Both the position numbers and the translations under genes were made by a program. Positions 1 to 60,780 of a stretch of 64,000 bases of DNA are shown here, one piece after another. The first letter of the stretch is position 1. Every line of letters starts with the position of its first letter. Below the pieces are notes generated by a model that saw only the letters and a program-made list of their open reading frames with translations, was not told the origin of the DNA and did no database searches. The stretch comes from Thermoplasmatota archaeon (lineage in GTDB: Archaea; Thermoplasmatota; Penumbrarchaeia; JASLWR01), in assembly GCA_030740765.1 (NCBI GenBank), contig JASLWR010000004.1, forward strand, positions 24,873-88,872. Reading direction: 5' to 3'.

Positions 1-3000
1 CTGCCATATCACCCAGTGTAGAAAGATAAGCATCCAGTTCTGAAAGGTCACTGGTCTGTGATGGATCAGGGGGAGGTCCATCTGGCAACTCTAACGGTGG
101 GGTGTCGGGTGATTTAGGAATCGGTTCGGGGGGAAATTGCGGTGTCGATTCCATTGGTATTAAGGGTTCTTCCGGTAGGGGAAAGGGAGTTTCCATAGCA
201 CCAACAATCGGGAATGCGAAGGGCTGGACTGCCAGATCCGGAGTAGTGATCTGGGTCGGGGGTGCTGGATTCATGATTGTTTGATCCGAGGGGGAAGGTC
301 CGGGCGGAAGAGCCATTCTTTCAAGGTATTGCGGCCCCTGCTCAGTTGAAAATGAAGGGAGCGAGTATGCGGTGCTGCCTACAGTACCCATGCCTTGTCC
401 CGCCTGATTATTGGGAGTTTGTTGTGAGGATTGCCCGTACTGAGGTAACTGGGGCTGCCCGAACTGATTGGGCGATCCCCCACCTGATTGTTGAACGTTT
501 AGCCCCGGTCCCGGCGGAAGCATTAGCTGTGAGAATTGCATTCCAGGCATCCCGCCATGTCTTTGTGGCTGTGGGGCTGCCCCGTATCCTTGCTTCCCCG
601 TATACATGTGCTGACCCTGGGGATAAGGATGGGAACTAGGGCCGTAAGGGGATTGTTGGAATGGAGGAGGTGACGATGGCGGAACATCCTTCTTCCCGTT
701 CTTCTTTTTTCTCACTATAATCAAGATGATCAGGACAACGATGATGAGGGCGAGTATCCCCCCCAGGATAATGAATAGCATGGAGGAACCTTCGCCCAGT
801 ATCCCGGCACTTTCCGTGTTGACAATATCGGGCTCGCCTTCCGGTGAATCCTCCCCGTTATTCGGGTCGGTACCGGATTCCCGTTCGAATCCGTCGGAGA
901 AACCGTCCCCGTCGCTGTCCATCTCGTAATCGGCACTGCTGCTCACCGCGATCTTTATCTTTTCACTCTCATTGTAGCCGTGACCGTCTGACACGAATAC
1001 CGTTATGGTATGTTTTCCCGGAGCCAATCGTGCATTCATTACTGCACCTGTCCCTAAAGATCGGTTGGCGCTGACATTGGATGTCCAGTAATAGCTAAGA
1101 TTATCCCCGTCCTCGTCGAAGGAAGCGGATGCGTCGAATAAAATCACGCTGTCGAACCTGAATAACGAACCTTCATCAGGAGCTGATATTACCACATCCG
1201 GCCTGGAATTCACCCATACCCTGTACGGGATCGAAATATTGTAACCGGTACCCATCAGATCGTCGGCACGCCAGCGGATGTAATTATCGGTCCCCCAATC
1301 AAACTCCAGCTCCAATAGTACCTGGGTGGGATTGCCATCCACGACGTTTATTACCTTCTTCCATGGACCGTAATTATTTTCGTCGTCACCCCCGCCATTT
1401 GAGATGGAATATTCAATCGTTACCGGATCGACCCCGGTTCCATCGTCGAATATCTGTATGAAACATTCAACATTGTTGCTGTCAGCATACTCATCCTCAA
1501 GCGGTGTAAAAGAGCCAAAATGTACGGGAGAACGGTCTATTTTCAGGTTGAATTTATCGGATAATGTAAAGGGGTTCCCAACCAGATCAGTCCCTCTGAA
1601 CATTAGAAAATTATCCTTCCCTTCAGCGTAGTCGAAGGTCACCGTTATCTTATAACTGTTTTCAGCATCTTCGATAATATTTTCAGCATCTATGGACATC
1701 CATCCACCGAAATCGCCCGGACCAGAGGTTGATATCCTGGCTTCCAGGCTGCCGGGATCCACCCCGCTTCCTGCATCCCTTACAATTATACTGGACGTTA
1801 TTGTGTTTGTTTTGTACCATTCCGTCTCAGGCGAGATTACGTTTGCGAAATTTACAGGTGTGACGTCCACTTTTATATTTATCGAAGGAGATTCTGTAAA
1901 CCCGTTTCCCGAAATGTCCTTGGCACGCCATTTTATGTAATTGTCCTCACCTTCATGAAATATGTATTTGATATCAGGCATCATTGGTTCGCTCACTTCA
2001 GGTATCCACGCGGGGATCCAGAAATCGAAGCCGTGCTCGCTGCCGCTGGAAATAGAGTATTCGATGCTGCTGCCGTCAACCCCGGATCCTTCTCCATCAT
2101 AGATCTCGATGGAGCATTCCACGTCCGTGTGATTGTGCCATGAGCCGTCTTGTGGGGAAAAGTTCGAAAAGACGGGGGGGGTCAAGTCCACCAGTATGCC
2201 CGAGGTTGCGGCATCGCCAATGTTCCCCACCATGTCGATGCACCATACATAAATTTCTGCAAATCCCTCGTCCAGTTTATCTATCTTGATCTCCGTGTCG
2301 TTGATGAACGATCCGTTGATGGTTCCCGACTTATCGGTTCCGGAAAAATAATATCCAAGTAGACCCGAGGCTGGGTCCTCCACCCTATCCCAGGTAACGT
2401 ACATCTCGGCTAGCTTCGTATTCTCCGTCTCCTTGTCCTTGAAACCACCGGCACGACACTGCAGGTTAACGGGAAACAGCGGAGGGTCCGCATCGATCTT
2501 CACCGCAAATGTCAGATTCGTCATGCATATGCCTGTTCCGGGTATATTCTCGATTGTGATGAGATATTCTTCCTCCTCGTCCGTTATGTTTCCGGAAGTG
2601 AATATTATTTCGACGTTTTCACCCCTGCTTTCGTTATCCCACCAAGTTCTTCCGGAGCTGTCCGAAAGCTTGACATCGTAATAATCGTCATGGGGAAAAA
2701 TGTCGATGCTACCGGCATATTGCACTGTTATATTGCTAAGGTTTATACTTTCTTCACCTTGTATCCAAGCTTCCTCCCTCAAGGCTCCTTGGTATTCACC
2801 TATATAATCAGCCGTACCGAAAAAGTCCAGGTCGTTCTCGATTCGAAAGAGCCATGGGAACCGATCAACGGAATATTCACCTGTTTTTGCCGTTGTAAAA
2901 ACCAGGCAATCGATCAACTCCTCGTGTGGAAAAGTGAAATTGAAGATAAGAATGAAATTCAGGTACCACCTGTCCACACCGTTATTCGTGATGAAACAGT

Positions 3001-4063
3001 CGTTTATCAGTAACTGAACTGTCCCAACCTCGTCCTGCAGTTTGAAGAATTTGCCCTGGGTCCAATTGTAGCACAATGTGGCGTTGGTGGTATTGTAATC
3101 CAGGTGGACCTTCACGTTTGATACCTCATCGAGAGAGTCCATGGTGCTGACATTCAGGGTGAGGTTGTACGGTTGGTACTGGGCGTAGCAAATTTTGTCG
3201 TCGCCGGTGGGATTGACCAATTCAACGTTCTCTGCACTGGGTATGGAAGTCATACCCTCCATGGCCTCCAGGATCTCCTGTTGGGAAAGATACCTGGAGA
3301 AGATGGCGGCATCGTCTATCAACACATCCGCACCGCTGTTAGCGGAGATTGGTTTTCCACCCACACAAGGGTCCGTGGGGCAGTGGGAGCCCTGTGCACG
3401 CCGCGGAGATGTAGGAACGTTCTTTGCACCTGTAACCTTCAGAACACCGTCAACATAAATCTGGAGATTGTTCATATTGCACCGAATGGCGACATGATGC
3501 CACTGGCTGTTAGCCAGGTTCAAACCGTTTGCATACGTATTATAATTCGAATTGTCATTATCACTCCCTCCCCAGAAACGTATCTGTGATGAACTGGCAA
3601 GGTTCATAGTGTAGCCGTTTCGGTTGGTACAACAATCCCCGAACATCATCAGCCCCTTCTGGCTTCCAGAATTGACCTTGAACCAGCACATGAAAGTATA
3701 GGCGTTAGGCATATCGAGGTTTGCAAGAGGCCCGCCAACCTGAACACGATTCTGATCGCCCCCGGGGACCCGTAATGACCACCTTCCGTGTTTAGCGTCG
3801 TTGGAAAACGAGACTCCATGAAGTGTCCCGTCGTTCCCACCAGAAATCGACAGGTCCCTTGCCAGGTTTCCCCTGCCTTCCTCAAAATCATAGTACAGTG
3901 CCTCCGGCTGCAATCCTCTCCGGCGTGCGAAAGCAGGTTGAGCGGCTTCCATCTTCCCGATTTTAACGTCTTTGGACCTGTTTTCCTCAAATGCATGAGA
4001 TGATAAGAATACTGCATATGAAGAGACTAAAAGTAATATGACGATGAGTGATATAAAAAACAT
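1..4063 (-). CDS. Giant single-pass surface protein, paralog A (3' partial, C-terminus beyond window start). Signal peptide MFFISLIVILLLVSS, LamG/ConA-like N-terminal head, conserved ectodomain, DSDGDGFSDGFERE motif, TM helix, P/Q/G-rich cytoplasmic tail.
   Basis: ATG is at 4063-4061 (revcomp translation MFFISLIVILLLVSSYAVFLSSHAFEE). Hand translation of the same frame (codon top position = 1 mod 3) reads NSGADVLIDDAAIFSRYLSQ at about 3281-3340, YEMDSDGDGFSDG at about 890-928 and QTSDLSELDAYLSTLGDMA at 2-58. These match paralogs B-D. The frame is identical at both ends, so the ORF is open-ended and not listed by the ORF track. Internal stops were not exhaustively checked. Confidence 0.7.
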   Translation of the reverse strand, partial: MFFISLIVILLLVSSYAVFLSSHAFEENRSKDVKIGKMEAAQPAFARRRGLQPEALYYDFEEGRGNLARDLSISGGNDGTLHGVSFSNDAKHGRWSLRVPGGDQNRVQVGGPLANLDMPNAYTFMCWFKVNSGSQKGLMMFGDCCTNRNGYTMNLASSSQIRFWGGSDNDNSNYNTYANGLNLANSQWHHVAIRCNMNNLQIYVDGVLKVTGAKNVPTSPRRAQGSHCPTDPCVGGKPISANSGADVLIDDAAIFSRYLSQQEILEAMEGMTSIPSAENVELVNPTGDDKICYAQYQPYNLTLNVSTMDSLDEVSNVKVHLDYNTTNATLCYNWTQGKFFKLQDEVGTVQLLINDCFITNNGVDRWYLNFILIFNFTFPHEELIDCLVFTTAKTGEYSVDRFPWLFRIENDLDFFGTADYIGEYQGALREEAWIQGEESINLSNITVQYAGSIDIFPHDDYYDVKLSDSSGRTWWDNESRGENVEIIFTSGNITDEEEEYLITIENIPGTGICMTNLTFAVKIDADPPLFPVNLQCRAGGFKDKETENTKLAEMYVTWDRVEDPASGLLGYYFSGTDKSGTINGSFINDTEIKIDKLDEGFAEIYVWCIDMVGNIGDAATSGILVDLTPPVFSNFSPQDGSWHNHTDVECSIEIYDGEGSGVDGSSIEYSISSGSEHGFDFWIPAWIPEVSEPMMPDIKYIFHEGEDNYIKWRAKDISGNGFTESPSINIKVDVTPVNFANVISPETEWYKTNTITSSIIVRDAGSGVDPGSLEARISTSGPGDFGGWMSIDAENIIEDAENSYKITVTFDYAEGKDNFLMFRGTDLVGNPFTLSDKFNLKIDRSPVHFGSFTPLEDEYADSNNVECFIQIFDDGTGVDPVTIEYSISNGGGDDENNYGPWKKVINVVDGNPTQVLLELEFDWGTDNYIRWRADDLMGTGYNISIPYRVWVNSRPDVVISAPDEGSLFRFDSVILFDASASFDEDGDNLSYYWTSNVSANRSLGTGAVMNARLAPGKHTITVFVSDGHGYNESEKIKIAVSSSADYEMDSDGDGFSDGFERESGTDPNNGEDSPEGEPDIVNTESAGILGEGSSMLFIILGGILALIIVVLIILIIVRKKKNGKKDVPPSSPPPFQQSPYGPSSHPYPQGQHMYTGKQGYGAAPQPQRHGGMPGMQFSQLMLPPGPGLNVQQSGGGSPNQFGQPQLPQYGQSSQQTPNNQAGQGMGTVGSTAYSLPSFSTEQGPQYLERMALPPGPSPSDQTIMNPAPPTQITTPDLAVQPFAFPIVGAMETPFPLPEEPLIPMESTPQFPPEPIPKSPDTPPLELPDGPPPDPSQTSDLSELDAYLSTLGDMA

Positions 4064-4263
4064 TTTACTACTGGTCACTTGGGCCATTCGATCATTCCAT
4101 AGCTTGTTTATAACGATAAAGAGAGTGAACCATAAGGGCGATAGCTATCCGATTGCTTATCTTAATCATAGTATTAATTCATTAATAACTATTTGGTAAA
4201 ATATCCGGATTTGTCCTTTTCCAGTATTTTTTTAACAATTACCCATCACTAGCGGAATTTTCT

Positions 4264-7200
4264 CTAAATTGAATTGATTACCCCTTGCGTCTGGCATACC
4301 GGGCAGGTGACCAATGCCGGGAACTCGGCGATCTCCGCCATGTAATTATTGCCGCATGAATGACACTGCATCTGCAGGAATCCCCTTCGGTTACCGCCAC
4401 CGTCTGGTGGCGTAGGCCCGTTTACACTGCGCAACACCTTCGGCGTTGCTCCCCCCTCGGGAGCAAGCTCCCTACGGGGGAGAGGGGAAGCAGATTCTGC
4501 TTTTTCCTGAAGGAAGCTAGCTTCCGAAGGATGTAGCGGAGCGGAACGGTCTGCGGTCACCGAAGATGAAACCAACAGACCTGTCTGTTGGTGATTCATA
4601 GTTATCTCATTCGTCAATTGTGATGATGAGCCCTCCGGAGCCGGGGGAGCCATGTTTCCTTCCGGAACTGGCGGTGCGGCAGGCACCGTGGGTTCTTTAT
4701 ACATATCATCCAATGAAGAAAGATATGCATCGAGCTCGGACAGATCACTGGTCGGCGAAATACCTGCCGTGGGTGGACTAAGCCCAGCTGGGGCTTGGCT
4801 GGCAGTAGGGATCGAAGCCCCCTCCGGGGGGAACTGCGAGATTTCTCCCGGGGGAGATGAAGGTGATGGCGGTCCCGAAAAAAGCGTTCCCATGGCACCA
4901 ATGTCCGGTGAAGTGGGAGGGAGGACTGACAGATCGGGGCTTGTCATCGGGCTTGGTACCGCCGTATTAATAGTTGTTTGCTCTTCCATGGAAGCGGGTG
5001 CTGGAGGAAGTGCCATTCGTTCAAGATTTTGTACTCCCTGTTCGGTAGTGAATGAAGGAAGGGCATATGCCTGACCTGCCGTAAGATCGGTTCCTGGCCC
5101 CGTTTGATTGTAGAGAGGCTGTTGTGGTGCTTGAGCTTGACCTAATTGCGAAGAACCATACACGTCGGGTCCATGCGGGAGCAACGGGAGGGAGCCCTGT
5201 CCACCCGCCATCCCAACATATGGTGCCTGGAATTGGGGTGAGCCCCCGTATCCTTGCTGCCCGGGTGACATATACTGGCCCCGGGGATGGGGCAGCATAG
5301 CCTGCCCTTGTACTGAGTGCTGGATGGGTGCTTGGACGGATGGAGAAACCTCTTTTTCTTCTTTTTTCATTCTTTTTCTTACGATAAAAAATATTACCCC
5401 AATAAGTATGATCAGCAATAGAATTCCTCCGAGAATGAATAATAACAGTGAAGAATCTTTACTGAGAATACCCGCGGTTTCGGTTTCCACGATGTCTGGT
5501 TTACCGGGGGGACTATGGGCCCCATTATGGGGGTCGGTGCCTTTTTCACGCTCCAGACCGTCAGAGAAACCGTCCCCGTCGCTGTCGCGTTCATAATCGG
5601 CTGTAGCGCCCACCTCGATTTTAACTTTCTCGCTTACATTGTAACCGTGCCCGTCTGACACGAACAAGGTGATAGTATGTTTTCCTGGGGTCAGGATACC
5701 TCTCATTAGAACCTTTGAGCCGATTGAACGGTTCGCACTGACATTGGAGGACCAGTAATAGCTGAGATTGTCGCCGTCCTCATCACGTGATCCCGAGGCA
5801 TCAAAAAATATTTGACTGTCAAACCTGAAGTACACTCCCTGTTCGGGATCCGTGATTATCGCTTCAGGGCGGGAATTCACCCATACGCGGTACTCCCTAG
5901 ACTCATTGTAACCGGTACCCATCAGGTCGTCGGCGCGCCAGCGGATGAAATTTTCTTTTCCCCACTTGAATTCCACCTCCACCAGAACCTGTGCAGGATT
6001 TCCCGAAACCACGTTTTCCGCCTTTTTCCAGGGCCCAAAACTTTTACGGTCGCCCCCCGCCCCGTTCGCAACTGAATATTCAACCGTTGCCGGATCGACC
6101 CCTGAACCATCGTCCAGTATCTGGATGAAACATTCAACCGTCTCGCTGTCCCCGTACTCATCCCCGCCAGGTGTGAACGTCCCGAAATATACCGGAAAGG
6201 TATCAATTTTCAGATTGAATTTATCGGATAGGGTGAAGGGGTTGCCAACCACGTCCGTCCCACGGAACATAATGTAGTTATCTTTCCCTTCGGCATAACT
6301 GAATGTCACAGTGATTTCGTGTGTGTCTTCTCCAGCTTCAGTAATATTTTCGGGGTCAATCGGCATCCATTGGCCATAACTATTTTGACCCTCGGTGGAT
6401 ATCCTAGCTCCAAGGGTTGTAAGGTCCACTCCGCTTCCTGCGTCACTTACAGTGATAGTTGTGCTTATTTTATTTAGGTCGTACCATTCCTTTTGGGATG
6501 ATATCTCCTTGGCGAAATTGACCGGTGTAACGTCCACCTTCAAATTTACCGGAGAAGATTCAGCAAATCCGTTTCCCGAAATGTCCTTGGCACGCCATTT
6601 TATGTAATTGTCCTCTCCCTCAGGGAAGATGTATTTTACACTCGGAATTATAAGGTTTCCTCCTTCCGCGACCCATGCAGGTATCCATAGATCGGAACCC
6701 AGCCCCAGGCCTACTGAAACCGAGTATTCGATGGTACTGCCGTCGACTCCCGCTCCATCTCCGTCGTAGACCTCCACCGAGCAATCGATATCCGTGTGAT
6801 TGTGCCAAGAACCGTCCATGGGAGTATGGTTTGAAAAGACCGGCGCCGTCAGATCAACCAGTATGCTCGATGTGGCGGCCTCCCCAATGTTTCCCACCTT
6901 GTCCACGCACCACACGTAAATCTCAGCTTCTCCCTCGGTCAGCTTATCGATCTTGACCTCCGTATCATTGGTTAATGTCCCGTTAGTGGTTCCTGAATCG
7001 TCCATCTGGGAATAATAATATCCAAGGAGACCAGAAGCAGGGTCCTCAACGGCATCCCAGGTAACGTACATCTCGGGCTGATCCGTATTCCCCGTCTCCT
7101 TGTCCTTGAAACCTCCGGCGTGGCATATAAGATTGACCGGATACAGGGGTGCCTCAGCATCGATCTTCACGGGGAAGGTCAGATTAGTCATGCATATACC

Positions 7201-8751
7201 AGAGCCGGGGATGTTCTCAATGGTGATGAGATATTCCTCGTCCGGGTCGGTTACGTTTATCGAGGTGAAACCTATGTCGATATTTTCTCCCTTGCTATCA
7301 TTGTCCCACCAGGAATTTCCAACGCTGTCCATTACACGCACGTCGAAATAACCGTCTTCAGGGTATATGTTCGCAGAACCCGCGTATCTCACTTTGAGAT
7401 CCGATAAAGCCAATTTCTCGCTTCCTCTTATCCAGTCCCCTTCATCCAGTTCTCCCTGGAATATGCCTGTTAAACCTGGCGAGCCAAGCAATTCCATATC
7501 ATTTTCGACCCTGAACAGGTATGGGAAACGGTCCCGGGAGTTCTCACCAGTATTTGCTGTGATGTCCACGAAACAGTCCACCTGCCTTTCGTGAGTGAAA
7601 GAGAAGTTTATAATGAAGGTAAAATTGACCCACCACCGGTCCACAGCGTCATTGCTAACGGAACATTGGTTCGGAAGAAATCTCACGTGGCCGTCCGGAT
7701 CCTGAACTTTAAAAAATTGGCCCCGGGTCCAGTTGTAGCCAAGAGTTGCGTTTGTCGTGTTGTAGTCGAGATATACAAGAAGTTCGGAAACCTCATAGAG
7801 ATCTCTCGTGGCCGTGATGTTTACGCTGAGATTGTATGCCCGGTACTCGGCATAACATACCTTTTCCACCCCTCCCTCGCCCCTGAGTGCTACCTCGTCA
7901 ACGTGGGCCGTGATCTCCACGGCAAGCCATTTTATTACATTCAGAAAATAACGCTGGCAGTTGCCATTGGAATCCCAGTTGCCGCCAACCCCCGAATACG
8001 TCCGGCCCCTGCCGTATATGAAGATCATTGGGCTCTGACGGTTGTTGGCGTCCCCGATCCGGGTTGCCTGGGGAGCGATGTTGTTATCCCGCAGCTCGGA
8101 ATCAAATAGACCGTTACTGCCGGTGACGGGAGAATTCACACCGTCCCATATCTCGTGGTTGCCCACCTTGTTAAAAGAGAAACCTCCAGCATTGTCGCCT
8201 CTACCGATCCTGTTGGTATAACCGAACATATCTTCGAGAGCGATGTATCCCCCTTGAATGGGATCCTGCTGGTCTACCATCCCGCAGCTTTCGCTCCATA
8301 TACCGCCTCCAGCCTGAACCCAGTTCCGCACGTCCGCAGCCACCACCCTGCCGCGCCCCCTAGAACGGCCCAGGTACACCACGTCGTAATTTGCCAGAAC
8401 CGCGGCATTGAGGGTACCGCTGCACATCTCGGTTATTTCTATACCATTGTTTGTGAGATAGGTTTTGGGAATCGTCACGTAGCTGTTGCGCCCGCAGGAA
8501 TTTGTCCCGTCCCCCTGGTAGATTAGAAATTTAACGTTACCTCCACCCCGGCTCATTGGTGAAAGTTCCTTATTGACCGTAATATGATTATCCCCATTGG
8601 CGTCATTTACCTCTCCCCGCCATCCATTGAGAGTTGGTCCAATATCAGCAAGCAGTATTATAAACAGTATCGAAAATATCAGGCCGGAGACCACTTTATC
8701 TCTCATTTGCTTCAATTCCTTCCATCTCCAAAAAGACCCTGAACAACCCAC
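4264..8751 (-). CDS. Giant single-pass surface protein, paralog B (1495 aa). ThuA/GATase1-like head, Ig-like/PKD ectodomain, Ca-binding-like DSDGDGFSDGLERE, TM, cytoplasmic tail with C-terminal C4 zinc ribbon. Carries an in-frame 75-aa insertion before the Zn ribbon.
   Basis: Long ORF in the track. PKD motif FDASGSRDEDGDNLSYYW. TM segment LLLFILGGILLLIILIGVIFFIV. C-terminus MQCHSCGNNYMAEIAEFPALVTCPVCQTQG. The true start may be the internal Met MRDKVVSGLIFSILFIILL at about 8706, which gives a signal peptide. Confidence 0.85.
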   Translation of the reverse strand: MGCSGSFWRWKELKQMRDKVVSGLIFSILFIILLADIGPTLNGWRGEVNDANGDNHITVNKELSPMSRGGGNVKFLIYQGDGTNSCGRNSYVTIPKTYLTNNGIEITEMCSGTLNAAVLANYDVVYLGRSRGRGRVVAADVRNWVQAGGGIWSESCGMVDQQDPIQGGYIALEDMFGYTNRIGRGDNAGGFSFNKVGNHEIWDGVNSPVTGSNGLFDSELRDNNIAPQATRIGDANNRQSPMIFIYGRGRTYSGVGGNWDSNGNCQRYFLNVIKWLAVEITAHVDEVALRGEGGVEKVCYAEYRAYNLSVNITATRDLYEVSELLVYLDYNTTNATLGYNWTRGQFFKVQDPDGHVRFLPNQCSVSNDAVDRWWVNFTFIINFSFTHERQVDCFVDITANTGENSRDRFPYLFRVENDMELLGSPGLTGIFQGELDEGDWIRGSEKLALSDLKVRYAGSANIYPEDGYFDVRVMDSVGNSWWDNDSKGENIDIGFTSINVTDPDEEYLITIENIPGSGICMTNLTFPVKIDAEAPLYPVNLICHAGGFKDKETGNTDQPEMYVTWDAVEDPASGLLGYYYSQMDDSGTTNGTLTNDTEVKIDKLTEGEAEIYVWCVDKVGNIGEAATSSILVDLTAPVFSNHTPMDGSWHNHTDIDCSVEVYDGDGAGVDGSTIEYSVSVGLGLGSDLWIPAWVAEGGNLIIPSVKYIFPEGEDNYIKWRAKDISGNGFAESSPVNLKVDVTPVNFAKEISSQKEWYDLNKISTTITVSDAGSGVDLTTLGARISTEGQNSYGQWMPIDPENITEAGEDTHEITVTFSYAEGKDNYIMFRGTDVVGNPFTLSDKFNLKIDTFPVYFGTFTPGGDEYGDSETVECFIQILDDGSGVDPATVEYSVANGAGGDRKSFGPWKKAENVVSGNPAQVLVEVEFKWGKENFIRWRADDLMGTGYNESREYRVWVNSRPEAIITDPEQGVYFRFDSQIFFDASGSRDEDGDNLSYYWSSNVSANRSIGSKVLMRGILTPGKHTITLFVSDGHGYNVSEKVKIEVGATADYERDSDGDGFSDGLEREKGTDPHNGAHSPPGKPDIVETETAGILSKDSSLLLFILGGILLLIILIGVIFFIVRKRMKKEEKEVSPSVQAPIQHSVQGQAMLPHPRGQYMSPGQQGYGGSPQFQAPYVGMAGGQGSLPLLPHGPDVYGSSQLGQAQAPQQPLYNQTGPGTDLTAGQAYALPSFTTEQGVQNLERMALPPAPASMEEQTTINTAVPSPMTSPDLSVLPPTSPDIGAMGTLFSGPPSPSSPPGEISQFPPEGASIPTASQAPAGLSPPTAGISPTSDLSELDAYLSSLDDMYKEPTVPAAPPVPEGNMAPPAPEGSSSQLTNEITMNHQQTGLLVSSSVTADRSAPLHPSEASFLQEKAESASPLPRRELAPEGGATPKVLRSVNGPTPPDGGGNRRGFLQMQCHSCGNNYMAEIAEFPALVTCPVCQTQGVINSI
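4372..4596 (+). repeat. 225-nt hairpin-rich repeat element (MITE-like), inserted in frame within the paralog B coding sequence; second copy at 60781-60895.
   Basis: The stretch 4372-4400 (ctgcaggaatccccttcggttaccgccaccgtctggtgg) aligns with 60781-60820 (cgcaggaatcctcttcggtaacccccaccgtttggtgggg). Both copies end in ...ggaagcagattc(c)tgc...gatgaaacc(a/c)acaga...tctgt(t/g)ggtgattcat. Paralogs C and D read TNEITM-QCHSCGNNY without these 75 codons. Confidence 0.6.
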
Positions 8752-8772
8752 AAGTTGTGGGTATCATCCTCA

Positions 8773-8806
8773 GAAATATCAGTATGCACATGCATTCTGA
8801 TATTTC
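8773..8806 (-). terminator. 10-bp inverted repeat hairpin (gaaatatcag/ctgatatttc) in the spacer downstream of paralog C and upstream of paralog B.
   Basis: Perfect 10-bp stem with a 14-nt loop read directly; lies between the stop of 8879..13234 and the start of 4264..8751. Confidence 0.3.
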
Positions 8807-8878
8807 TACCGGATAAAACAACGTACAACCTGTATTTATATCTTATCCGAAGATGCAGCGGGAAGTCTTAAACCGAAG

Positions 8879-11800
8879 CTAGAGAGATTCGATCATTCCC
8901 TGTGTCTGGCAGACCGGGCAGGCGACCAGAGCCGGTAATTCCACTATCTCCGCTGAATAATTATTGCCGCAGGAATGACATTGCATGGTTATTTCATTCG
9001 TCACTGGAGCCGGGGCCCCCTCCGGAACCGATGGTATCGCTGGTGGAATCGCAGGTGGTGCAGTAGGCGATGCAACAGGTGGCGCAGGCTCTGGCGGTTT
9101 TGTCATGTCCTCGAGATATGCGAGATATGAATCAAGTTCGGACAGATCACCGGAACCCTCGGGTGGTACGGCAGGCACTTCCGGGATCATAGACGGGGTC
9201 GGCAGCGGTAATGGAAATACTGCTTCCACACCTGTAGGCGGCATTAGCGGCGGAGATATTGAAGGTGGTGCCGCTTCCATTGCATTGGGTGGTATTGGCG
9301 GTGCCGGTGATGAAGGTAGTGTATTATCCACTGGGGAAATATTTGTAGTATCAGCAATAGGCATCGGGGACCCAATATCGGGACCAAGTGGTGCCACGGA
9401 TGCCTGTATTGGAAATTCAAGACCTGTGAAAACCACTGGAGCGGGCGAAGGCTCGGGAGCAGGCGGAAGGGCCAATCTACCCAGTTCCTGCATTCCCTGG
9501 TCTGTTGAGAAAGTGGGAAGGAGATAGCTGCTGCCTCCTGCATATCCCGTATTCAAAGCTGCTGCCCCTGTCAGTGCCTGCCCGGGGGCGGCAGCCTGGA
9601 ACTGGACCGGGTTCACAAAACCGGGACCGGGAGCCAGCATCAAAGGCGGGGCTGGGGAACCCGGCATGCCGGCCATCGGCGCCGGCATAACTCCACCATA
9701 CCCTTGCACCAGCGGAGCATACTGCGCAGAATGCGGCCCCTGCCCGTATGGGGGCTGCCGGGGGAATGACGGCACTGGCGCCGCTACCTTCTCCTCTTTG
9801 GATTTCCTTTTTTTCCTGACTATGAAAAAGATGATCAGGATCAGTAATATGAGAAGCAGGATGCAGCCGAGTATAATTAAAAGCAGCGAAGAACTTTCTC
9901 CCAGTATCCCCGCACTTTCGGCAGGTACGATATCCGGCTCGCCCTCAGGGATCACGGCGCCGTTGTACGGATCGGTCCCGGATTCCCTCTCGAAACCGTC
10001 CGAGAAACCATCCCCGTCACTGTCCGTCTCGTAATCGGTCTTACTGCCGACCTCTATCCTTACATCCGTACTCTCGTTATAGCCGTGCCCGTCAAAAACG
10101 AACAACGTGATGATGTGTTTTCCGGGAGTCAATCTGCTGCCAAATAGGGCAAGGTGACTCATGGACTTGTTCGCGCTGACGTTGCTGGACCAGTAATAGC
10201 TAAGATTGTCCCCGTCCTCGTCGTATGAATCCGTAGCATCGAAATATATTTCCCTGTCGAATCTGAAATAGGATGCTTGATCAGGAGACGAAATTACTGC
10301 TTCCGGCCTGGAATTCACCCAAACTCTGTATGGTTTCGATATATTGTGACCTGTACCCACCTTATCGTCTGCACGCCAGCGGATGAAATTGTCCGGTCCC
10401 CAGTCGAACTCCAATTCCAGAAGAACCTGGGTAGGATTCCCGATGACCACGTTTACTACCTTTTTCCATGGTCTAAAACTATCATTGTCGCCTCCCGCCC
10501 CACTCGCCATGGAATACTCCACCGTTCCCGGGTCCACGCCTGAACCGTCATCCAATATCTCAACGAAACATTCAACAGTCTGCTGGTTGGAATATTCGTT
10601 CTCCTCCGGTGTGAAGGTGCCGAAATATACCGGCGAAGTATCTATTTTCAGATTGAATTTATCGGAAAGTGTGAAGGGATTGCCCACTATGTCCGTTCCC
10701 CTGAACATGATGTAGTTTTCGGTCCCTTCAGCATATGTGAATGTGACGCTTATCTCAAAGCCGTCTTCACCGGATTTGATTATATTTTCCGGTTCAATAC
10801 TCATCCACGAACGAAAGTCGGTTGGGCCCGACGTTGATATCCTCATTTCAAGACTCTCAGGGTCCACTCCGCTTCCTGCGTCGTTAACGGTGATCTTCGT
10901 AGTTATCGTTTTTTGGAGGTACCATTCCTCTTGTGGCGATATCGTTTGAGCGAAATTGACCGGAGTGTTGTCAATTTTTATATTTACGGGGGAGGATTCC
11001 ACGAAACCGTTTCCCGAAATGTCCTTGGCACGCCATTTTAGGTAATTGTTCTCCCCTTCGAGAAATACATATTTGACAACAGGTGTCATTGGTTCGGTCT
11101 TTTCGGGCATCCAGACGGGTATCCAGAGATCGAAACCGTGCACTCCGTTTTTGGACACTGAATATTCGATGGTGGCGCCATCGACACCGCCTCCCTTCCC
11201 ATCGTGGATATCAACCGAGCAATCGACATCCGTATGATTGTGCCATGAACCGTCCAAGGGAGTATAATTCGAAAAATAGGGTAATGACAGGTCAACCAGT
11301 ATCTCCGAGGCTGCGGCCCCACCGACATTCCCAACATTATCCACGCACCACACATATACCGGTACGGGTCCCTCGGGTAGCTCATTTATCTCGACCTCGG
11401 TTTCATTGGTAAACGATCCGTTCTCAGTGGTGGAATTATCCATAAGGGAATAATAATATCCTCTGAGACCCGAGGCAGGGTCTTCAACCTCATCCCAGGT
11501 GACGAAGACCTCTTGCTTGTTGGTATGTTCGGCGGACTTGCCTTTGAAGCTGTCGGGACGGCATTGGAGGTTCACCGGCGAAAGTGGCGCAGCCGCATCT
11601 ATTTTGAGGGGGAAATATAGATTCTTTGCACATACTCCTTCTTCCGGTATGTTCACTATGCTTATTTGATATTCCTCTTCCGGATCGGTGGCATTTCCGG
11701 ATATTGCCTCAATGGAAACGCTCTTACCGCTGGATTCGTTGTCCCACCATTCATTAGCCATTCTGTCCCGTACCACCACATCGAAGAAATTATCGTCCGG

Positions 11801-13234
11801 ATGAACATTCCCGGAACCTTCGTAGACCACGGTCATGTTGCTAAAAATCAGTTTTTCCTTCCCCCTTATCCAGTTTCCCCTATCAACAATACCCTGATAT
11901 TCACCCTCCACCACGGTCTCTCCCACGAGCTCAAGGTCATTTTCTACACGGAATAGATAAGGGAATCGATCAAGGTTGAATCTCCCGGAGCTTCCGGTTG
12001 TATTTATAAAACAATCTATAAGCTCCTCGTGAGGGAATGTGAAGTCTAGCACGAAGGAAAAATTTATCCACCATTTCTCCACATTATTGTTGGAAAACGC
12101 CGAATCACCCAGCAGTTCCAGATGATTTCCGAGGTCATGAACCTTGTAAAAGTTCTTTTGTGTTCCATTGAATCCGAGGCTTATGTTGGTGTTGTTGTAA
12201 TCTATGTAGATTCGGAGGTCGGAAAGATCGTCAAGAGATTCGAAGGTGGTGACGTTGATACCCAGTTTATAGGAACGGTACCCGGCATAGCATACTGCGC
12301 TTTTATTATCCGAATCAATCAGGTTGACCGATTCGGGCTCGGGGGGACGGGCCGTGGGGAAATTATCCTTAATCATATCGATATATTTTACCATCTGCAG
12401 AAGTTCGTTGTTTCCGCGGTTGCCCCAGTCGAAGGTCATCATGTTCATCATGACATACCCTTCGTCCAGCACGTATTCTATGAAAGCCGGTTTATTGTTC
12501 GCGTTGGACCAGAGAATGTCATTCCACTTGTTGGTTTCGGGATTTGTTCCGAGGTTCGCTCCACCGGAGTCCGCAAGCATACCCGGCGCGGTAACATAAC
12601 CGTGGCAGGTGGTACCCCAGCCCTGAAAATTATTGGCATTAAGTCCATTTCCGCCGTAGCCCTGACCGGTAATCCATTCGTGATCGTTATCAGCCACCGT
12701 AGGGTTCTCGTCGGTGTTGCCGGATTGCTGGTAACTACCGAAGTTCGAACCACCCGGTCCGGTAACATCCTGTCCGGAATTATGCGCGGCATTTGCAACG
12801 AAGATACCACCTTTCTTCACATATTTCTCGATAATACCCCCGTTCATCATTGTCTTTAATGATCCGTCTGCAATATCACCCTGGCAGCCAGTATAAATAG
12901 CATAATAGCGGTCGAAGAGGTACTCTGAATTGTGCTGGGCCGTTACCCCGGGCTGCTCCACATCAAAAGGGATTCCTCTGTTTGTTAGATGATTTTGTAG
13001 AGTGTTGGTACGATCCCCGCCCGAAGAGCAGACCAGCACCTTGTTCGCGGCTCTACTGGACCACTGTTTTCCGCCAATTGTGCCTGCATTTCGAATTTTC
13101 TCATCAATTGATTCAACGGTACTTATGGAATGGTCGCTCCAATCCGTGAGTAATGGGACACTAATTGCAGGGATTATCAATAGTATACAAAGTAACAGGG
13201 GAAGACTGCGTAAGTGGGAAATCACGCTTTTCAT
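8879..13234 (-). CDS. Giant single-pass surface protein, paralog C (1451 aa); same architecture, ThuA/GATase1-like head, C-terminal Zn ribbon MQCHSCGNNYSAEIVELPALVACPVCQTQG.
   Basis: Long ORF in the track. Signal peptide MKSVISHLRSLPLLLCILLIIPAISVP. Motifs FDATDSYDEDGDNLSYYW (PKD) and DSDGDGFSDGFERE. TM helix, then a P-rich tail. Confidence 0.85.
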   Translation of the reverse strand: MKSVISHLRSLPLLLCILLIIPAISVPLLTDWSDHSISTVESIDEKIRNAGTIGGKQWSSRAANKVLVCSSGGDRTNTLQNHLTNRGIPFDVEQPGVTAQHNSEYLFDRYYAIYTGCQGDIADGSLKTMMNGGIIEKYVKKGGIFVANAAHNSGQDVTGPGGSNFGSYQQSGNTDENPTVADNDHEWITGQGYGGNGLNANNFQGWGTTCHGYVTAPGMLADSGGANLGTNPETNKWNDILWSNANNKPAFIEYVLDEGYVMMNMMTFDWGNRGNNELLQMVKYIDMIKDNFPTARPPEPESVNLIDSDNKSAVCYAGYRSYKLGINVTTFESLDDLSDLRIYIDYNNTNISLGFNGTQKNFYKVHDLGNHLELLGDSAFSNNNVEKWWINFSFVLDFTFPHEELIDCFINTTGSSGRFNLDRFPYLFRVENDLELVGETVVEGEYQGIVDRGNWIRGKEKLIFSNMTVVYEGSGNVHPDDNFFDVVVRDRMANEWWDNESSGKSVSIEAISGNATDPEEEYQISIVNIPEEGVCAKNLYFPLKIDAAAPLSPVNLQCRPDSFKGKSAEHTNKQEVFVTWDEVEDPASGLRGYYYSLMDNSTTENGSFTNETEVEINELPEGPVPVYVWCVDNVGNVGGAAASEILVDLSLPYFSNYTPLDGSWHNHTDVDCSVDIHDGKGGGVDGATIEYSVSKNGVHGFDLWIPVWMPEKTEPMTPVVKYVFLEGENNYLKWRAKDISGNGFVESSPVNIKIDNTPVNFAQTISPQEEWYLQKTITTKITVNDAGSGVDPESLEMRISTSGPTDFRSWMSIEPENIIKSGEDGFEISVTFTYAEGTENYIMFRGTDIVGNPFTLSDKFNLKIDTSPVYFGTFTPEENEYSNQQTVECFVEILDDGSGVDPGTVEYSMASGAGGDNDSFRPWKKVVNVVIGNPTQVLLELEFDWGPDNFIRWRADDKVGTGHNISKPYRVWVNSRPEAVISSPDQASYFRFDREIYFDATDSYDEDGDNLSYYWSSNVSANKSMSHLALFGSRLTPGKHIITLFVFDGHGYNESTDVRIEVGSKTDYETDSDGDGFSDGFERESGTDPYNGAVIPEGEPDIVPAESAGILGESSSLLLIILGCILLLILLILIIFFIVRKKRKSKEEKVAAPVPSFPRQPPYGQGPHSAQYAPLVQGYGGVMPAPMAGMPGSPAPPLMLAPGPGFVNPVQFQAAAPGQALTGAAALNTGYAGGSSYLLPTFSTDQGMQELGRLALPPAPEPSPAPVVFTGLEFPIQASVAPLGPDIGSPMPIADTTNISPVDNTLPSSPAPPIPPNAMEAAPPSISPPLMPPTGVEAVFPLPLPTPSMIPEVPAVPPEGSGDLSELDSYLAYLEDMTKPPEPAPPVASPTAPPAIPPAIPSVPEGAPAPVTNEITMQCHSCGNNYSAEIVELPALVACPVCQTQGMIESL

Positions 13235-13390
13235 TCAATTCAACCTCTTTCCATACTGACCGACAGCCCTTACCGCCCGGCGTTGGTCTGCCTTTGGAGT
13301 CATATGATAACAAATCCATAGTCTTATGAATAAATAATGCTTTCGTTTGAAAAGGATAAAACCAGCACGAATATTCTCATCGATGCCGGA

Positions 13391-16300
13391 TCATATTGAT
13401 TCTATAACTCCTTGCGTCTGGCAAACCGTGCAGGTGACCAGTGCAGGGAACTTAGCAATCTCCGCTATATAGTTATTGCCGCAGGAATGGCACTGCATAG
13501 TAATTTTATTAGTCGGGGGAACCGGACTTTCTTCCGGAACCGGGGGTACGTCGGAAGGTGTTGGCTCCGGTGGCGGGGACAATCCACCCAGGGTAGTTAG
13601 ATATGTGTCGAGTTGGGATAAATCACTATCCGCTGAAGTGTCTATTGGAGGTACGCCAAGCACTAAAGATGAAGTGCTGCTAGGGGAAATAGTGGTGGGT
13701 TCCGGTGGAGCCGGGGGTGCTTCACCACTTAGCGGAATGGGTGCTGGAGGCGATTGGAAAGGGTTTTCCATTGCACTTACCCCAGGTAATAATGCAGGTT
13801 GGGCTGAAAGATCCGGAGCGGTCATCTGGGTTGGAGTGAACGCTCCAATCATTCCTTGATCTTCCGAAGGAGGTGGTCCCGGCGGTAAGGCCATTCTGTC
13901 GAGGTTCTGCGGCCCCTGATCGGTACTGAATAATGGTAATGAATATGCGGTACTGCCTGTCATCCCTGTCCCAGACTGACCGTAAAGAGCCAGCTGCTGT
14001 GGCTGAGTTTGCTGGACTTGATTCGGGCCGGAATATTGAGTGTTTGATATATCAGGTACTATCGACTGTATTAGAGGAGGATTTTGAGCTCCCCGCATCC
14101 CCATAACGGCTGCCTGATATTGCGCCATTTCCCCGTACCCTTTCTGCTCAACAGGAATAAATTGACCCTGGGGATAAGGATGCTGGGCCGGTCCGTACAT
14201 TGATTGCGGCATAGGTGACCGGATCGGAACCGAAACATCTCTCACTTCGTCCTTTTTTCTTCTCCTCACAATAAATATGATGACCAAAACCAGTATGGTC
14301 AAAAATAACACAATACCAAGAATGACGAAGAATAGCGAAGAGCCTCCTCCGAGTATGCCACCGCTTTCGGAGATGACGATATCAGGCTCGCCATCCGGGC
14401 TAATGGCACCGTTGTATGGGTCGGATCCTGATTCCCGTTCCAGTCCGTCTGAGAATCCGTCCCCGTCGCTGTCCCGCTGAAAATCGACCTGGCTGATCAC
14501 CTCTAGCTTAACTTTCGTACTCTCGTTGTAACCGTGTCTGTCCGAAACGAATAATGTGATCGTATGTTTTCCAGGGGCTAATCCGGCGCTGAAATAGGCG
14601 TCGAATCCGATTGAACGATTCACACTGACATTTGAGGACCAGTAATAGCTAAGATTGTCCCCATCCTCGTCACTTGAACCGGAAGCATCAAAAGTAATTT
14701 CGCTATCGAACCTGAAATACGACCCTGGATCGGGTGAGGCGATTGCCGCCTCCGGCCTGGAATTCACCCATACCCGGTATGGCAGCGATATGTTGAGCCC
14801 GGTACCCATCATGTCGTCGGCACGCCACCGGATAAAATTGTCATATCCCCAATCGAATTCCAGCTCTATCAGAACCTGCGTGGGATTTCCCGCAACAACA
14901 TTTACCACCTTTTTCCATGGCCCGAATATCTTTTCGTCGCCCCCCATCCCGGTGCCCCCTGCTCCATTTGCCACGGAATACTCAACCGTCGCTGGATCCA
15001 CCCCCGAACTGGCATCGAGTATCTGGATGAAACATTCCACCTTCTCGTTGTCTGCATATTCGTTCTCATCCGGTGTGAATAAACCAAAATAAATGGGAGA
15101 TGTATCGATTTTCAGATTGAATTTATCGGAGAGAGTGAAGAGATTGCCTACCATATCGGTTCCTCTGAACATAATGTAGTTATCCTTTCCCTCCGCGTAT
15201 TTGAAAGTCACTGTTATCTCAAAGCCGTCTTCACCGGATTCGCTGATGTTTTCGACATCTACGGACTCCCACCGGCCGAAATCGTTGGGGCTAGACGTGG
15301 ATATCCTTGCTCCAAGACTGTCCGGGTTCACACCGCTTCCAATGTCGTTAACCAATATCTTTGTGGTTATTTCTTCATGATCATACCATTCCACCTGAGG
15401 TGATATCAGCTTTGCAAAATTGATAGGAGTGGTGTCCACTTTTATATTGTACGAGGGTGATTCGACAAACCCATTTCCAGTGATGTCCTTTGTGCGCCAT
15501 TTAATATAATTTTCCTCGCCCTCCTGAAATACGTATTTGATATTTGGCACCATGGGTTCATTCAACTCGGGTATCCACGCGGGAATCCAGAAATCGAAAC
15601 CGTGCATCCCATCATTGGACACGGAGTACTCGATAGTGCTGCCGTCCACACCGGATCCAGTGCCATCATAAATCTCAATCGAGCAGTCGATATCAGTATG
15701 ATTGTGCCATGAACCATCCTCCGGGGTGTGATTCGAAAATACTGGCGGTGTCAGGTCCACAAGTATACCGGATGAGGCGGCCGTGCCGATATTTCCGACC
15801 TTGTCCACACACCAAACGTAAATTTCCGCGAATTCCTCGTTCAGTTTCTCGATCTTGACCTCTGTGACATTGGTGAATGTCCCGTTACCAGTTCCCGACT
15901 TATCCACCGGGGAATAATAATAGCCCATCAGACCCGATGAGTGGTCCTCAACCGGATCCCATGTGACGAACATCTCGGCGCGATTGGTATGCTCGGTCTC
16001 CTTGTCCTTGAAATCATTGGCATGGCACTTTAAGTTGACGGGGAAGAGAGGCGGGTCCGCATCTATTCTTAGTGGAAAGGTCAGATTTGTCATGCAAATG
16101 CCTGTTCCGGGTATGTTCTCGATGGTGATGAGATATTCTTCTTCCGGGTCCGTATCGTTTCCGGAAGTGATGTTTATCTCGATATTTTCTCCCATGCTCT
16201 CGTTATCCCACCAGGCGCTCCCGTTATTATCGGCAACCCTGACATCGAAATAGTCATCATCGGGGTAGATGTCCGGAGCACCTGCATATCGTACCTTGAG

Positions 16301-17620
16301 ATTGCTGACCTTAATCCTTTCCCTGCCCCGTATCCAATCGTTCTTTTTCAACTCACCCTGATATTCACCTGTAAGATCGGGAATACCAACCAGCTCCAGG
16401 TCATTCTCGACCTTGAAAAGGTGCGGAAAGCGGTCCGTTCTTACAATTCCCGTGATGGCAGCAGTACTGATATAGCAGTCCACCAGTTCTTCATGTGGGA
16501 ATGTGAAATTGAAAATTACTGAAAAATTCAACCACCACCGCTCGACCCCGTCCGTGGAAACCTTGGAATCGTCAACATTCAATTGAACGTGCCCGTCCAA
16601 GTCCTGATATTTGTAGAAGCGAGATTGTGTCCAGTTGTAGCATAGTGTAGCATTGGTAGTATTATAATCAAGGAAAACCTTGACCTCGGAAACCTCGGTA
16701 AGGTCCCTTGCGGAGGTGACATTCACGCTGAGGGTGTAGTTTCTATGACGGGCATAGCATATATTATTCCCGTCACCCTGTCCCAAAATGGCTGCGTTAT
16801 CGGTATAGGCCGTGAGGTCCACTTCCAGCCAACATGCTACTGGCGTCCCACCCTGGTTCTGACCAACCGTGAGAAGAACTTCGGAGCCGAGCGGAATGGT
16901 GGTTATCTCACCATGGGACGCGGAACTACCGGAGAACGATGGCCGGTTCATGTTTCTAACCATGGGATGATTCACGGATGCCACGAAATTATGGCTATTA
17001 CCATTTCCATTTGTCCTTACACCGAAAGGACCGGGGACACCCCTGGACCACCGGCGTTGGTAATTCGTACCGAACATGTCTATCAATATTCCACCGTCGT
17101 TCACGTATTTCTCCATTGAAGGGACCAGTGACTCCATCTGGTTCAGATGCTGGTTCGGCTGGTACTCGGAAATAATGATCATCCGGTAAATGTTCGGATC
17201 GAAATCGTTTGCATTGATCCCGCCAGCGCTTTTCTGGGTGAATTGTATTCCTCTGTTGTTCATCTCCCGGCGCCAGCCGTCAGACCATCCCTGGTGATCC
17301 CATATGATAAGTATGGCTCCCGAATCCGCATGGGTGGGCCATAACCAATCGAAAGTATTGATGATAAAATAACGGGAATGTTGGCCGTTGCCGTAGCCGT
17401 AACTTGCTATGGTCCCCGTGACAAAATAAATGCCTTTGTCACCAGCGGTACGTTTGTTGGACGAGATGGGCGGAGGCTTTGAGGGGCTCTTTACGTTCAA
17501 CCCCACATCGTGGTTTTCGCTGAGAAGTATTTCAGAGCAAATAGTAAGATATCCCGTTCCTATGAAACACAAAACAACAGCTATCGACACCACCACGGGC
17601 CATGGATTCGTTCTACTCAT
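13391..17620 (-). CDS. Giant single-pass surface protein, paralog D (1409 aa); same architecture, C-terminal Zn ribbon MQCHSCGNNYIAEIAKFPALVTCTVCQTQG.
   Basis: Long ORF in the track. Signal peptide MSRTNPWPVVVSIAVVLCFIGTG. Motifs FDASGSSDEDGDNLSYYW (PKD) and DSDGDGFSDGLERE. TM segment, then a P/Q-rich tail. Confidence 0.85.
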   Translation of the reverse strand: MSRTNPWPVVVSIAVVLCFIGTGYLTICSEILLSENHDVGLNVKSPSKPPPISSNKRTAGDKGIYFVTGTIASYGYGNGQHSRYFIINTFDWLWPTHADSGAILIIWDHQGWSDGWRREMNNRGIQFTQKSAGGINANDFDPNIYRMIIISEYQPNQHLNQMESLVPSMEKYVNDGGILIDMFGTNYQRRWSRGVPGPFGVRTNGNGNSHNFVASVNHPMVRNMNRPSFSGSSASHGEITTIPLGSEVLLTVGQNQGGTPVACWLEVDLTAYTDNAAILGQGDGNNICYARHRNYTLSVNVTSARDLTEVSEVKVFLDYNTTNATLCYNWTQSRFYKYQDLDGHVQLNVDDSKVSTDGVERWWLNFSVIFNFTFPHEELVDCYISTAAITGIVRTDRFPHLFKVENDLELVGIPDLTGEYQGELKKNDWIRGRERIKVSNLKVRYAGAPDIYPDDDYFDVRVADNNGSAWWDNESMGENIEINITSGNDTDPEEEYLITIENIPGTGICMTNLTFPLRIDADPPLFPVNLKCHANDFKDKETEHTNRAEMFVTWDPVEDHSSGLMGYYYSPVDKSGTGNGTFTNVTEVKIEKLNEEFAEIYVWCVDKVGNIGTAASSGILVDLTPPVFSNHTPEDGSWHNHTDIDCSIEIYDGTGSGVDGSTIEYSVSNDGMHGFDFWIPAWIPELNEPMVPNIKYVFQEGEENYIKWRTKDITGNGFVESPSYNIKVDTTPINFAKLISPQVEWYDHEEITTKILVNDIGSGVNPDSLGARISTSSPNDFGRWESVDVENISESGEDGFEITVTFKYAEGKDNYIMFRGTDMVGNLFTLSDKFNLKIDTSPIYFGLFTPDENEYADNEKVECFIQILDASSGVDPATVEYSVANGAGGTGMGGDEKIFGPWKKVVNVVAGNPTQVLIELEFDWGYDNFIRWRADDMMGTGLNISLPYRVWVNSRPEAAIASPDPGSYFRFDSEITFDASGSSDEDGDNLSYYWSSNVSVNRSIGFDAYFSAGLAPGKHTITLFVSDRHGYNESTKVKLEVISQVDFQRDSDGDGFSDGLERESGSDPYNGAISPDGEPDIVISESGGILGGGSSLFFVILGIVLFLTILVLVIIFIVRRRKKDEVRDVSVPIRSPMPQSMYGPAQHPYPQGQFIPVEQKGYGEMAQYQAAVMGMRGAQNPPLIQSIVPDISNTQYSGPNQVQQTQPQQLALYGQSGTGMTGSTAYSLPLFSTDQGPQNLDRMALPPGPPPSEDQGMIGAFTPTQMTAPDLSAQPALLPGVSAMENPFQSPPAPIPLSGEAPPAPPEPTTISPSSTSSLVLGVPPIDTSADSDLSQLDTYLTTLGGLSPPPEPTPSDVPPVPEESPVPPTNKITMQCHSCGNNYIAEIAKFPALVTCTVCQTQGVIESI

Positions 17621-60774: not shown

Positions 60775-60780
60775 TACATC

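Follow-up and report, generated by a model that had tools for sequence, protein, structure and literature searches.

A tandem family of archaeal proteins that probably carries unrelated, portable head domains on a common surface stalk

Four large open reading frames (ORFs), which we denote paralogs A, B, C and D, lie head to tail on the minus strand of a 64,000-nt stretch of DNA from an uncultured marine archaeon of the Thermoplasmatota (GenBank assembly GCA_030740765.1, contig JASLWR010000004.1, positions 24,873–88,872; hereafter the window, in whose numbering they occupy positions 1–17620). Here, we report a computational analysis of these proteins, of a distant relative encoded farther along (protein E) and of a further paralog beyond the window edge (F). 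We consider it likely that A–D, F and E make up a tandem family of type I membrane surface proteins of roughly 1400 amino acids (aa), each of which places one globular head of around 230 aa on top of a stalk of around 800 aa that is presumably N-glycosylated. The heads are in all likelihood discrete, portable domains with at least three unrelated folds, namely LamG in A, a class I glutamine-amidotransferase-like (GATase1-like) fold in B, C, D and E, and olfactomedin (OLF) in F. With similar confidence, we assign B and E to one branch of the GATase1-like superfamily and C and D to a second branch, for which Pfam holds no model.

Each of A–D consists of an N-terminal hydrophobic segment, the head, an approximately 810-aa stalk, a membrane span, a Pro/Gln-rich tail and a zinc ribbon, in this order. 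The end of the stalk near the membrane features a TSP3_bac calcium-binding repeat that passes the Pfam threshold and a PKD-like domain that does not, and the tails contain short motifs conserved among the paralogs. Past the heads, A–D are 54–63% identical in pairs over 1076–1159 aa (BLASTP), with the stalks of B, C and D at 61–68%; together with F, they form one paralog family, in which the stalk, the membrane span, the tail and the C-terminal zinc ribbon are homologous and collinear. In a MAFFT alignment, this collinearity begins about 15 aa ahead of a conserved (V/I)CYA motif and runs to the C terminus, and the break is sharp, the region N-terminal of it being essentially unalignable among A–D. 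The heads (279, 286, 302 and 275 aa in A, B, C and D, respectively) showed no significant pairwise match in BLASTP, the best being that between C and D (E = 0.008 over 86 aa). Both comparisons bear out a first-pass annotation, made from the sequence letters, that had described four collinear paralogs differing in their first 300 or so residues. The peptides that it quoted are all present (ADVLIDDAAIFSRYLSQQEI in A, VVYLG...WVQAGGGI in B, IEKYVKKGGIFVANAAHN in C and VVVLDGGSG...MLFGLDY in the 18468–24347 protein, E). Its interval for the head of A, 2950–4063, corresponds to residues 1–371; it includes the whole head (3227–4063) but runs some 90 residues into the first conserved domain of the stalk. 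Paralog A in its entirety is a 1420-aa protein that includes the zinc ribbon (L017:14644-18906, contig Ga0373640_0000116); its end lies roughly 200 nt ahead of window position 1. For B, we used the start of the public gene call, 8706; a GTG at 8751 is a possible alternative start of the ORF.

The LamG head that had been proposed for A is confirmed by a full-length match to Pfam Laminin_G_3 (PF13385) well above the curated threshold (E = 8.1e-20; 71.9 bits versus a cut-off of 27.6; profile positions 4–150 of 151). The match covers residues 104–264 (window 3272–3754). Against PDB sequences, head A gave weak matches, with the LamG domain of neurexin-1-alpha at E = 0.003, and it is 92.6% identical to the ortholog head in a related metagenome-assembled genome (MAG) described below.

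For B, C and D, heads resembling ThuA-type or GATase1-like folds had been suggested, an assignment that stands at the level of superfamily and fold, with unequal strength among the three, and falls as membership in ThuA, for which none is above the Pfam threshold. Head B by itself reaches 13.7 bits for ThuA (E = 0.075; cut-off 33.4) and has no match in a full-length scan; as single sequences, the B, C and D heads match no PDB sequence, and a profile of three B-type sequences gave marginal flavodoxin-like matches in one search. The family became visible with a profile of B, its MAG ortholog (82% identical) and a B-like MAG paralog termed L1_1 (head 28% identical to B), which retrieved 27 proteins at E ≤ 8e-9 from a database of 5.8 billion entries. 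Scanned singly, members of the B-family alignment match ThuA in 15 of 27 cases (best E = 3.7e-6), GATase1_like in 7 of 27 and DUF7408 in 3, and their anchors are IPTL-CTERM, PEP-CTERM or TSP_3. A hidden Markov model (HMM) of 23 relatives, built without B and its near relatives P0005 and P0007 and without the L1_1-like P0006, scores B at 23.2 bits and its MAG ortholog at 26.4 bits, the best of 2200 shuffles reaching 8.2 bits. Against the PDB, the B-family profile matches 2gk3 (E = 1.6e-9), 3soz (8e-5) and the '(GATase1)-like protein' 3rht (0.039). On the basis of the independent HMM score, the ThuA and GATase1_like matches of family members and the match to 2gk3, head B is, as judged by these profiles, a divergent member of a ThuA/GATase1-like family of secreted domains.

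The relatives of heads C and D were sought in two ways. A word-index search returned three fragments for C and, with a concatenated B, D and E query, P0004 as the sole relative of D among the matches listed; in P0004, a NosD beta-helix and a MAM-like domain come immediately after a domain 56% identical to head D. A HMMER scan of 1.84 billion representatives with a C profile found 51 proteins at E ≤ 1e-3. P0033 has its stalk in common with the array (head 75.5% and stalk 45.5% identical to C), and the other C-family proteins have different scaffolds: 8 carry dockerin and 5 carry PEP-CTERM, and TSP_3, BNR and peptidase domains occur as well. Among 43 family members scanned, no Pfam model covers the C-type domain in any. 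The giant proteins P0069 and P0077 each carry two different branches of the superfamily on one protein. Comparison of the C and D families by hhalign gave a probability of 93.2% (E = 2.9e-7, 145 columns). With a cleaned HMM of 50 C-family sequences, D reaches 25.6 bits, D's MAG ortholog 27.6 bits and B 12.2 bits, and B-family proteins score as high as 23.4 bits, 17 of the 28 having E < 1e-3; the maxima for 4950 shuffles and for reversed sequences are 9.7 and 4.3 bits, and the LamG, OLF and propeller heads fall below 0. A pooled profile of the four alpha/beta heads was dropped, MAFFT having misaligned the E segment. By these family comparisons, the C and D heads are homologous to each other and very probably represent a separate branch of the class I glutamine-amidotransferase-like superfamily to which B belongs. 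Structural matches for the D model (peptidase E as the top Foldseek match, E = 3e-4) add weak support, because the AlphaFold models of C and D are of low confidence.

The family alignments of B, C, D and the E segment contain no conserved Cys nucleophile after the 'GG' strand. Conserved in all four alpha/beta domains of the window is an invariant His within the motif [ND]-H-[PE]. As a conserved nucleophile is missing and this His alone is retained, these domains are not amidotransferases.

Protein E places such a domain at the position of a head. Its parts are a signal peptide, a Reelin-subrepeat-B-like region, a GATase1-like domain, a stalk, a membrane span and an acidic tail with a zinc ribbon. 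Residues 889–1358 are homologous to the stalks of A–D (24–29% identity), and the GATase1-like segment (residues 683–892) occupies the head position, as it directly abuts this stalk-homologous part. The segment, which had been noted earlier as ThuA-like, aligns with the B family by hhalign at 91.5% probability (E = 8.7e-7, 182 columns) when represented by a three-sequence alignment that includes residues ~2041–2260 of P0077, and at only 21% with two sequences; its sole PDB match is 2gk3, at E = 0.74. The presence of this domain at the head position of E suggests that a GATase1-like head is the ancestral state. The N-terminal 682 aa of E (18468–20513) match Reelin_subrepeat-B in two stretches (E = 4.7e-14), where about four repeats with endings of the form ...DDW(F/Y)IDN(V/I) can be discerned by eye. 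The tail of E is strongly acidic and has its own zinc ribbon.

Paralog F, which lies just outside the window, so that the four-paralog picture is an effect of the window edge, encodes 1454 aa at L017:19000-23364, about 290 to 4660 nt ahead of window position 1 and on the same strand as A–D. It combines the stalk, tail and zinc ribbon of A–D with an OLF beta-propeller head (precomputed OLF match), is 55–66% identical to the MAG paralogs, and is followed by the gene for a 1542-aa Peptidase_C25 protein. The head of its MAG ortholog matches OLF in Pfam at E = 1.5e-42 (profile positions 26–243 of 246), and the two F heads are 88% identical. Scanning genomes with one stalk as the query brought up a single related MAG, 'uncultured archaeon ERP003628_co1_33' (CAYFHS010000001.1), which contains the same array; ERP003628 is a seawater metagenome project (PMC5531098). 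The array genes are also present on the independent Joint Genome Institute (JGI) contig Ga0373640_0000116, and a metagenome scan with the stalk alignment returned nothing beyond PKD-level matches. The gene order of the MAG differs from that of the window organism: E, D-type, OLF-type, a propeller-like head, a 9.5-kb stretch between the two loci read (152,935–162,456), B-like, B and A. Its loci L002:13546-17877, L002:17968-22032 and L001:293-4594 provide further heads, which are OLF, propeller-like (PQQ_2, 1e-3, sub-threshold) and a second B-like GATase1-like domain.

Comparison of the two genomes indicates that the pairing of heads with stalks is old. In the stalk tree, each window paralog pairs with the MAG paralog that has the same head, B grouping with B-like and OLF with propeller-like, from which it follows that the head–stalk combinations are older than the divergence of the two genomes. 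Nothing in the two genomes compared points to recent head exchange among the paralogs. Between orthologs, the heads are 87–93%, the stalks 75–79% and the tails 45–59% identical. Recent gene conversion or horizontal acquisition of heads was considered and rejected: DNA repeats shared by the paralogs are 68–84% identical without conversion tracts, and the GC content of the heads equals that of the stalks. Accordingly, of the earlier picture of modular heads swapped on a constant stalk and tail, the modularity survives as architecture, unrelated heads standing on collinear stalks and tails, and the swapping survives as ancient replacement; recent exchange does not, heads and stalks being congruent between the two genomes.

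How the heads came to differ is best approached through their relatives on other scaffolds. A D-type head (56% identical) is found on a NosD beta-helix protein, C-type heads (54% and 46% identical) on other scaffolds (P0034 with BNR repeats), and a B-type head (42% identical) on an Ig-like surface protein, with B-type domains also on IPTL-CTERM and PEP-CTERM proteins; the B, C and D heads are far less alike mutually than they are to these off-scaffold relatives. An alternative is that B, C and D inherited one GATase1-like head that drifted in place after duplication, only the LamG and olfactomedin heads being true replacements. All four alpha/beta domains do, in all probability, fall in one superfamily, the domain of E at the head position suggests an ancestral head of this kind, and the clustering of B with L1_1 in the stalk tree despite heads that are 28% identical indicates that whole-gene duplication followed by head divergence occurs. 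We nevertheless regard this course as unlikely: between orthologs the heads evolve more slowly than the stalks (by the identities given above), yet the B, C and D heads have lost significant pairwise similarity where their stalks have not, and each is closer (42–56% identity) to relatives on unrelated scaffolds. These same observations lead us to favour replacement by domain shuffling as the better explanation of the sequence data, even among B, C and D. That the N-terminal differences do not represent domains at all, arising instead from fast-evolving unstructured leaders or from errors of assembly or annotation, might be suspected from the B, C and D heads having no Pfam match above threshold and from the low AlphaFold confidence for C and D. 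It is hardly credible, given that ortholog heads are more conserved than any other part of the protein, that every head type has significant homologues elsewhere and that the same genes recur on an independent JGI contig and in the MAG. Under replacement, an ancestral protein, probably with a GATase1-like head as in E, would have been duplicated in tandem; heads would then have been replaced by recombination at the head–stalk junction, the incoming heads being domains that also circulate on other secreted scaffolds; and each head–stalk combination would subsequently have been fixed, under strong purifying selection.

The distribution of N-x-S/T sequons differs markedly among the parts of these proteins. 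Across the five heads of the window organism, 0 sequons were observed versus 17 expected from composition (Poisson P = 4e-8), the stalks have 20–22 each versus 7–8 expected (about 2.7-fold enrichment; 0 of 1000 shuffles reached the observed count), and the tails have about 0. This distribution fits an extracellular, N-glycosylated stalk that bears a bare head, with the tail in the cytoplasm. The glycosylated stalk may act as a spacer that holds the unglycosylated recognition head away from the cell, each paralog may have an external ligand of its own, with glycans or particle surfaces as the most plausible candidates, and the zinc-ribbon tail may connect the protein to a partner in the cytoplasm. 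Both LamG and olfactomedin are well known as extracellular binding modules, and the bacterial relatives of the GATase1-like heads occur as stand-alone secreted domains on dockerin, PEP-CTERM or IPTL-CTERM anchors. Since the heads are more conserved than the scaffold, their ligands would seem to be specific and distinct. To judge from the sequences, the most likely role of the heads is recognition of, or adhesion to, different external ligands.

Other functions can be envisaged. The alpha/beta heads could be surface enzymes, such as hydrolases or peptidases akin to peptidase E or to ThuA-type sugar-processing proteins, in which case the array would display tethered exoenzymes; the D model is structurally closest to S51 peptidases, the His in [ND]-H-[PE] is invariant in B, C, D and the E segment, C-type relatives occur alongside dockerins and peptidase domains, and a Peptidase_C25 gene directly follows the array. 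Against this, none of the families has a conserved Cys or Ser nucleophile after the 'GG' strand, the other heads of the family are classic binding domains and ThuA/GATase1_like families are not known to have the catalytic triad; we therefore consider an enzymatic array improbable. More speculative still is the idea that these proteins are an archaeal counterpart of animal adhesion receptors and that the C/D head is an undescribed extracellular domain family. The zinc-ribbon tail could then pass ligand engagement to an intracellular partner, by outside-in signalling or by coupling to internal machinery, and the C/D domain would be one that is widespread on dockerin- and PEP-CTERM-anchored bacterial proteins. 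The literature on olfactomedin and LamG in archaea and on Marine Group II surface proteins contained nothing relevant that we could find.

Several points weigh against our overall interpretation of portable, unrelated heads on glycosylated surface stalks. No head in the window other than that of A passes a curated Pfam threshold, hhalign comparisons among head families with shallow alignments are not significant, and the C family aligns with the B family at only 74.8% probability (E = 2.6e-5, 124 columns). AlphaFold, run on shallow alignments, gave a mean predicted confidence (pLDDT) of 41 for C and 52 for D, the latter with a predicted template modelling score (pTM) of 0.59 and a core at 62–82. 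Descent of the B, C and D heads from one ancestral head is conceivable in principle, and the family is seen in only two genomes and fragments, too few to date or count the replacements. Glycosylation, membrane topology, ligand binding and the role of the tail are all deduced from sequence.

Neither the shuffling of domains on surface proteins nor any of the folds described here is new. What the array offers is one scaffold with at least three unrelated folds at its tip, that is, a natural experiment in such shuffling. The previously unannotated heads of B, C and D can now be placed in the GATase1-like superfamily, that of C with less certainty, the C/D-type family of 51 proteins being without a Pfam model, and from the sequon pattern one would expect glycans on the stalk and none on the heads. 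For this uncultured archaeon of the sea, the repertoire of heads probably sets what the cell attaches to or senses, and it bears on the use of particles and polymers by planktonic archaea.

Table 1. Positions of the paralogs, their parts and the 117-nt element (window numbering unless a MAG locus is named)
Feature	Position	Strand	Basis or remark
Paralog A	<1..4063	(-)	C-terminus cut by window start
A head: signal/anchor and Laminin_G_3 (concanavalin-A-like) domain	3227..4063	(-)	Pfam scan
A stalk, membrane span and most of cytoplasmic tail	1..3226	(-)	Alignment; cut by window start
Paralog B	4264..8751	(-)	ORF
B head: signal/anchor and probable ThuA/GATase1-like alpha/beta domain (~7912-8535)	7894..8706	(-)	Family profiles
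B stalk (~810 aa): PKD-like domain and TSP3-type calcium-binding repeat near membrane; 20 N-x-S/T sequons	5464..7893	(-)	
B membrane span, Pro/Gln-rich tail and C-terminal CxxC...CxxC zinc ribbon; 228-nt insertion inside	4264..5463	(-)	
Paralog C	8879..13234	(-)	ORF
C head: signal/anchor and alpha/beta domain (~12347-13057)	12329..13234	(-)	Family without Pfam model
C stalk; 21 sequons	9899..12328	(-)	Alignment
C membrane span, cytoplasmic tail and zinc ribbon	8879..9898	(-)	Alignment
Paralog D	13391..17620	(-)	ORF
D head: signal/anchor and probable class I glutamine-amidotransferase-like alpha/beta domain (~16820-17434)	16796..17620	(-)	Homologous to C-type
D stalk; 22 sequons	14366..16795	(-)	Alignment
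D membrane span, cytoplasmic tail and zinc ribbon	13391..14365	(-)	Alignment
Protein E (1959 aa)	18468..24347	(+)	Transcription divergent from A–D
GATase1-like segment of E (residues 683-892)	20514..21143	(+)	hhalign to B family
117-nt element copy	60777-60890	(-)	Intergenic
117-nt element copies in MAG	L002:13235-13351, L002:17659-17775		In frame, same site, two paralogs
117-nt element, third MAG copy	L001:1-103		Start of locus, just upstream of paralog L1_1

Several further features of the tails were observed. The zinc ribbons of B, C and D, of the form CHSCGNNY...CP(V/I)CQTQG (4264–4371, 8879–8986 and 13391–13498), are the most conserved paralog DNA (77–84% identity) and match no Pfam family (best Zn_ribbon_8, E = 0.38); the Pro/Gln-rich tail ahead of them is the least conserved part between orthologs (45–59%). 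Just ahead of the zinc ribbon, B contains an in-frame insertion of 228 nt or 76 codons (4369–4596, minus strand) that is missing from C, D and B's MAG ortholog. The predicted fold of the insertion RNA has a minimum free energy of -105.7 kcal/mol (z = -5.4), and a comparison with Rfam gave no family match. Copies of a 117-nt element that corresponds to the two ends of the insertion occur elsewhere; the MAG D ortholog carries one and the window D does not. The consensus fold of the element has 37 pairs, 4 of them with compensatory double changes. From its sequence and predicted fold, the insertion looks like a small structured mobile element able to sit in frame within genes, similar in this respect to the Rickettsia palindromic elements.

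Elsewhere in the window, a gene for a BrxL-like Lon protease (37216–38628, plus strand; BrxL_ATPase 1.9e-93, BrxL_N 3.5e-25) is surrounded by genes of central metabolism (succinyl-CoA synthetase, fumarase and succinate dehydrogenase), and no other components of bacteriophage exclusion (BREX) were noticed in the window ORFs scanned. A 1418-aa ORF (52447–56703, minus strand) has HEAT repeats at its extreme C-terminus as its sole Pfam matches. A 678-aa protein (58738–60774, plus strand) has a signal-peptide peptidase domain of the presenilin type (SPP, 1e-68) in the C-terminal third, and its N-terminal ~450 aa are without annotation.

Comparison with known systems places each part of these proteins near a familiar family and sets it apart in some respect. 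Head A matches the Laminin_G_3 model of the concanavalin-A-like lectin/glucanase superfamily end to end, but is here a single N-terminal domain on an archaeal membrane-anchored stalk. The OLF domain (PF02191) is best known from animal extracellular proteins; in F and its MAG ortholog, it is present at full length, here topping an archaeal stalk. ThuA (PF06283) and GATase1_like (PF07090), grouped here with the solved structures 2gk3, 3soz, 3rht, 1t0b and 4e5v, are matched by members of the B family, whose profile reaches 2gk3, 3soz and 3rht, and share with the heads the motif order strand, helix, GG-strand, [ND]H[PE]xxxG, G-x-G-strand and C-terminal helix ending in W. B, C, D and the E segment are themselves under every Pfam threshold, and these domains are predicted to be extracellular, whereas the PDB entries of the relatives just named describe cytoplasmic proteins. 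In true class I glutamine amidotransferases, there is a catalytic Cys-His-Glu triad with the Cys in a nucleophile elbow after the central strand; the B, C, D and E families have no conserved Cys at that position. Peptidase E and cyanophycinase (MEROPS S51), which adopt the class I glutamine-amidotransferase-like fold, are only 7–14% identical to D, and no Ser-His-Glu triad can be placed in the D model, which is of low confidence outside its core.

In overall design, the array proteins resemble the giant RTX adhesins, which are long modular prokaryotic adhesins whose Ig-like stalk has a ligand-binding region at its tip. Both combine a long, repetitive, beta-rich extender with a distal binding module, and relatives differ mainly in that module. 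In contrast to the RTX adhesins, however, the array proteins appear to be type I membrane proteins whose cytoplasmic tail and zinc ribbon are conserved and whose head is at the N terminus, and their stalk is rich in sequons, suggesting archaeal N-glycosylation; the likeness drawn here is one of architecture.

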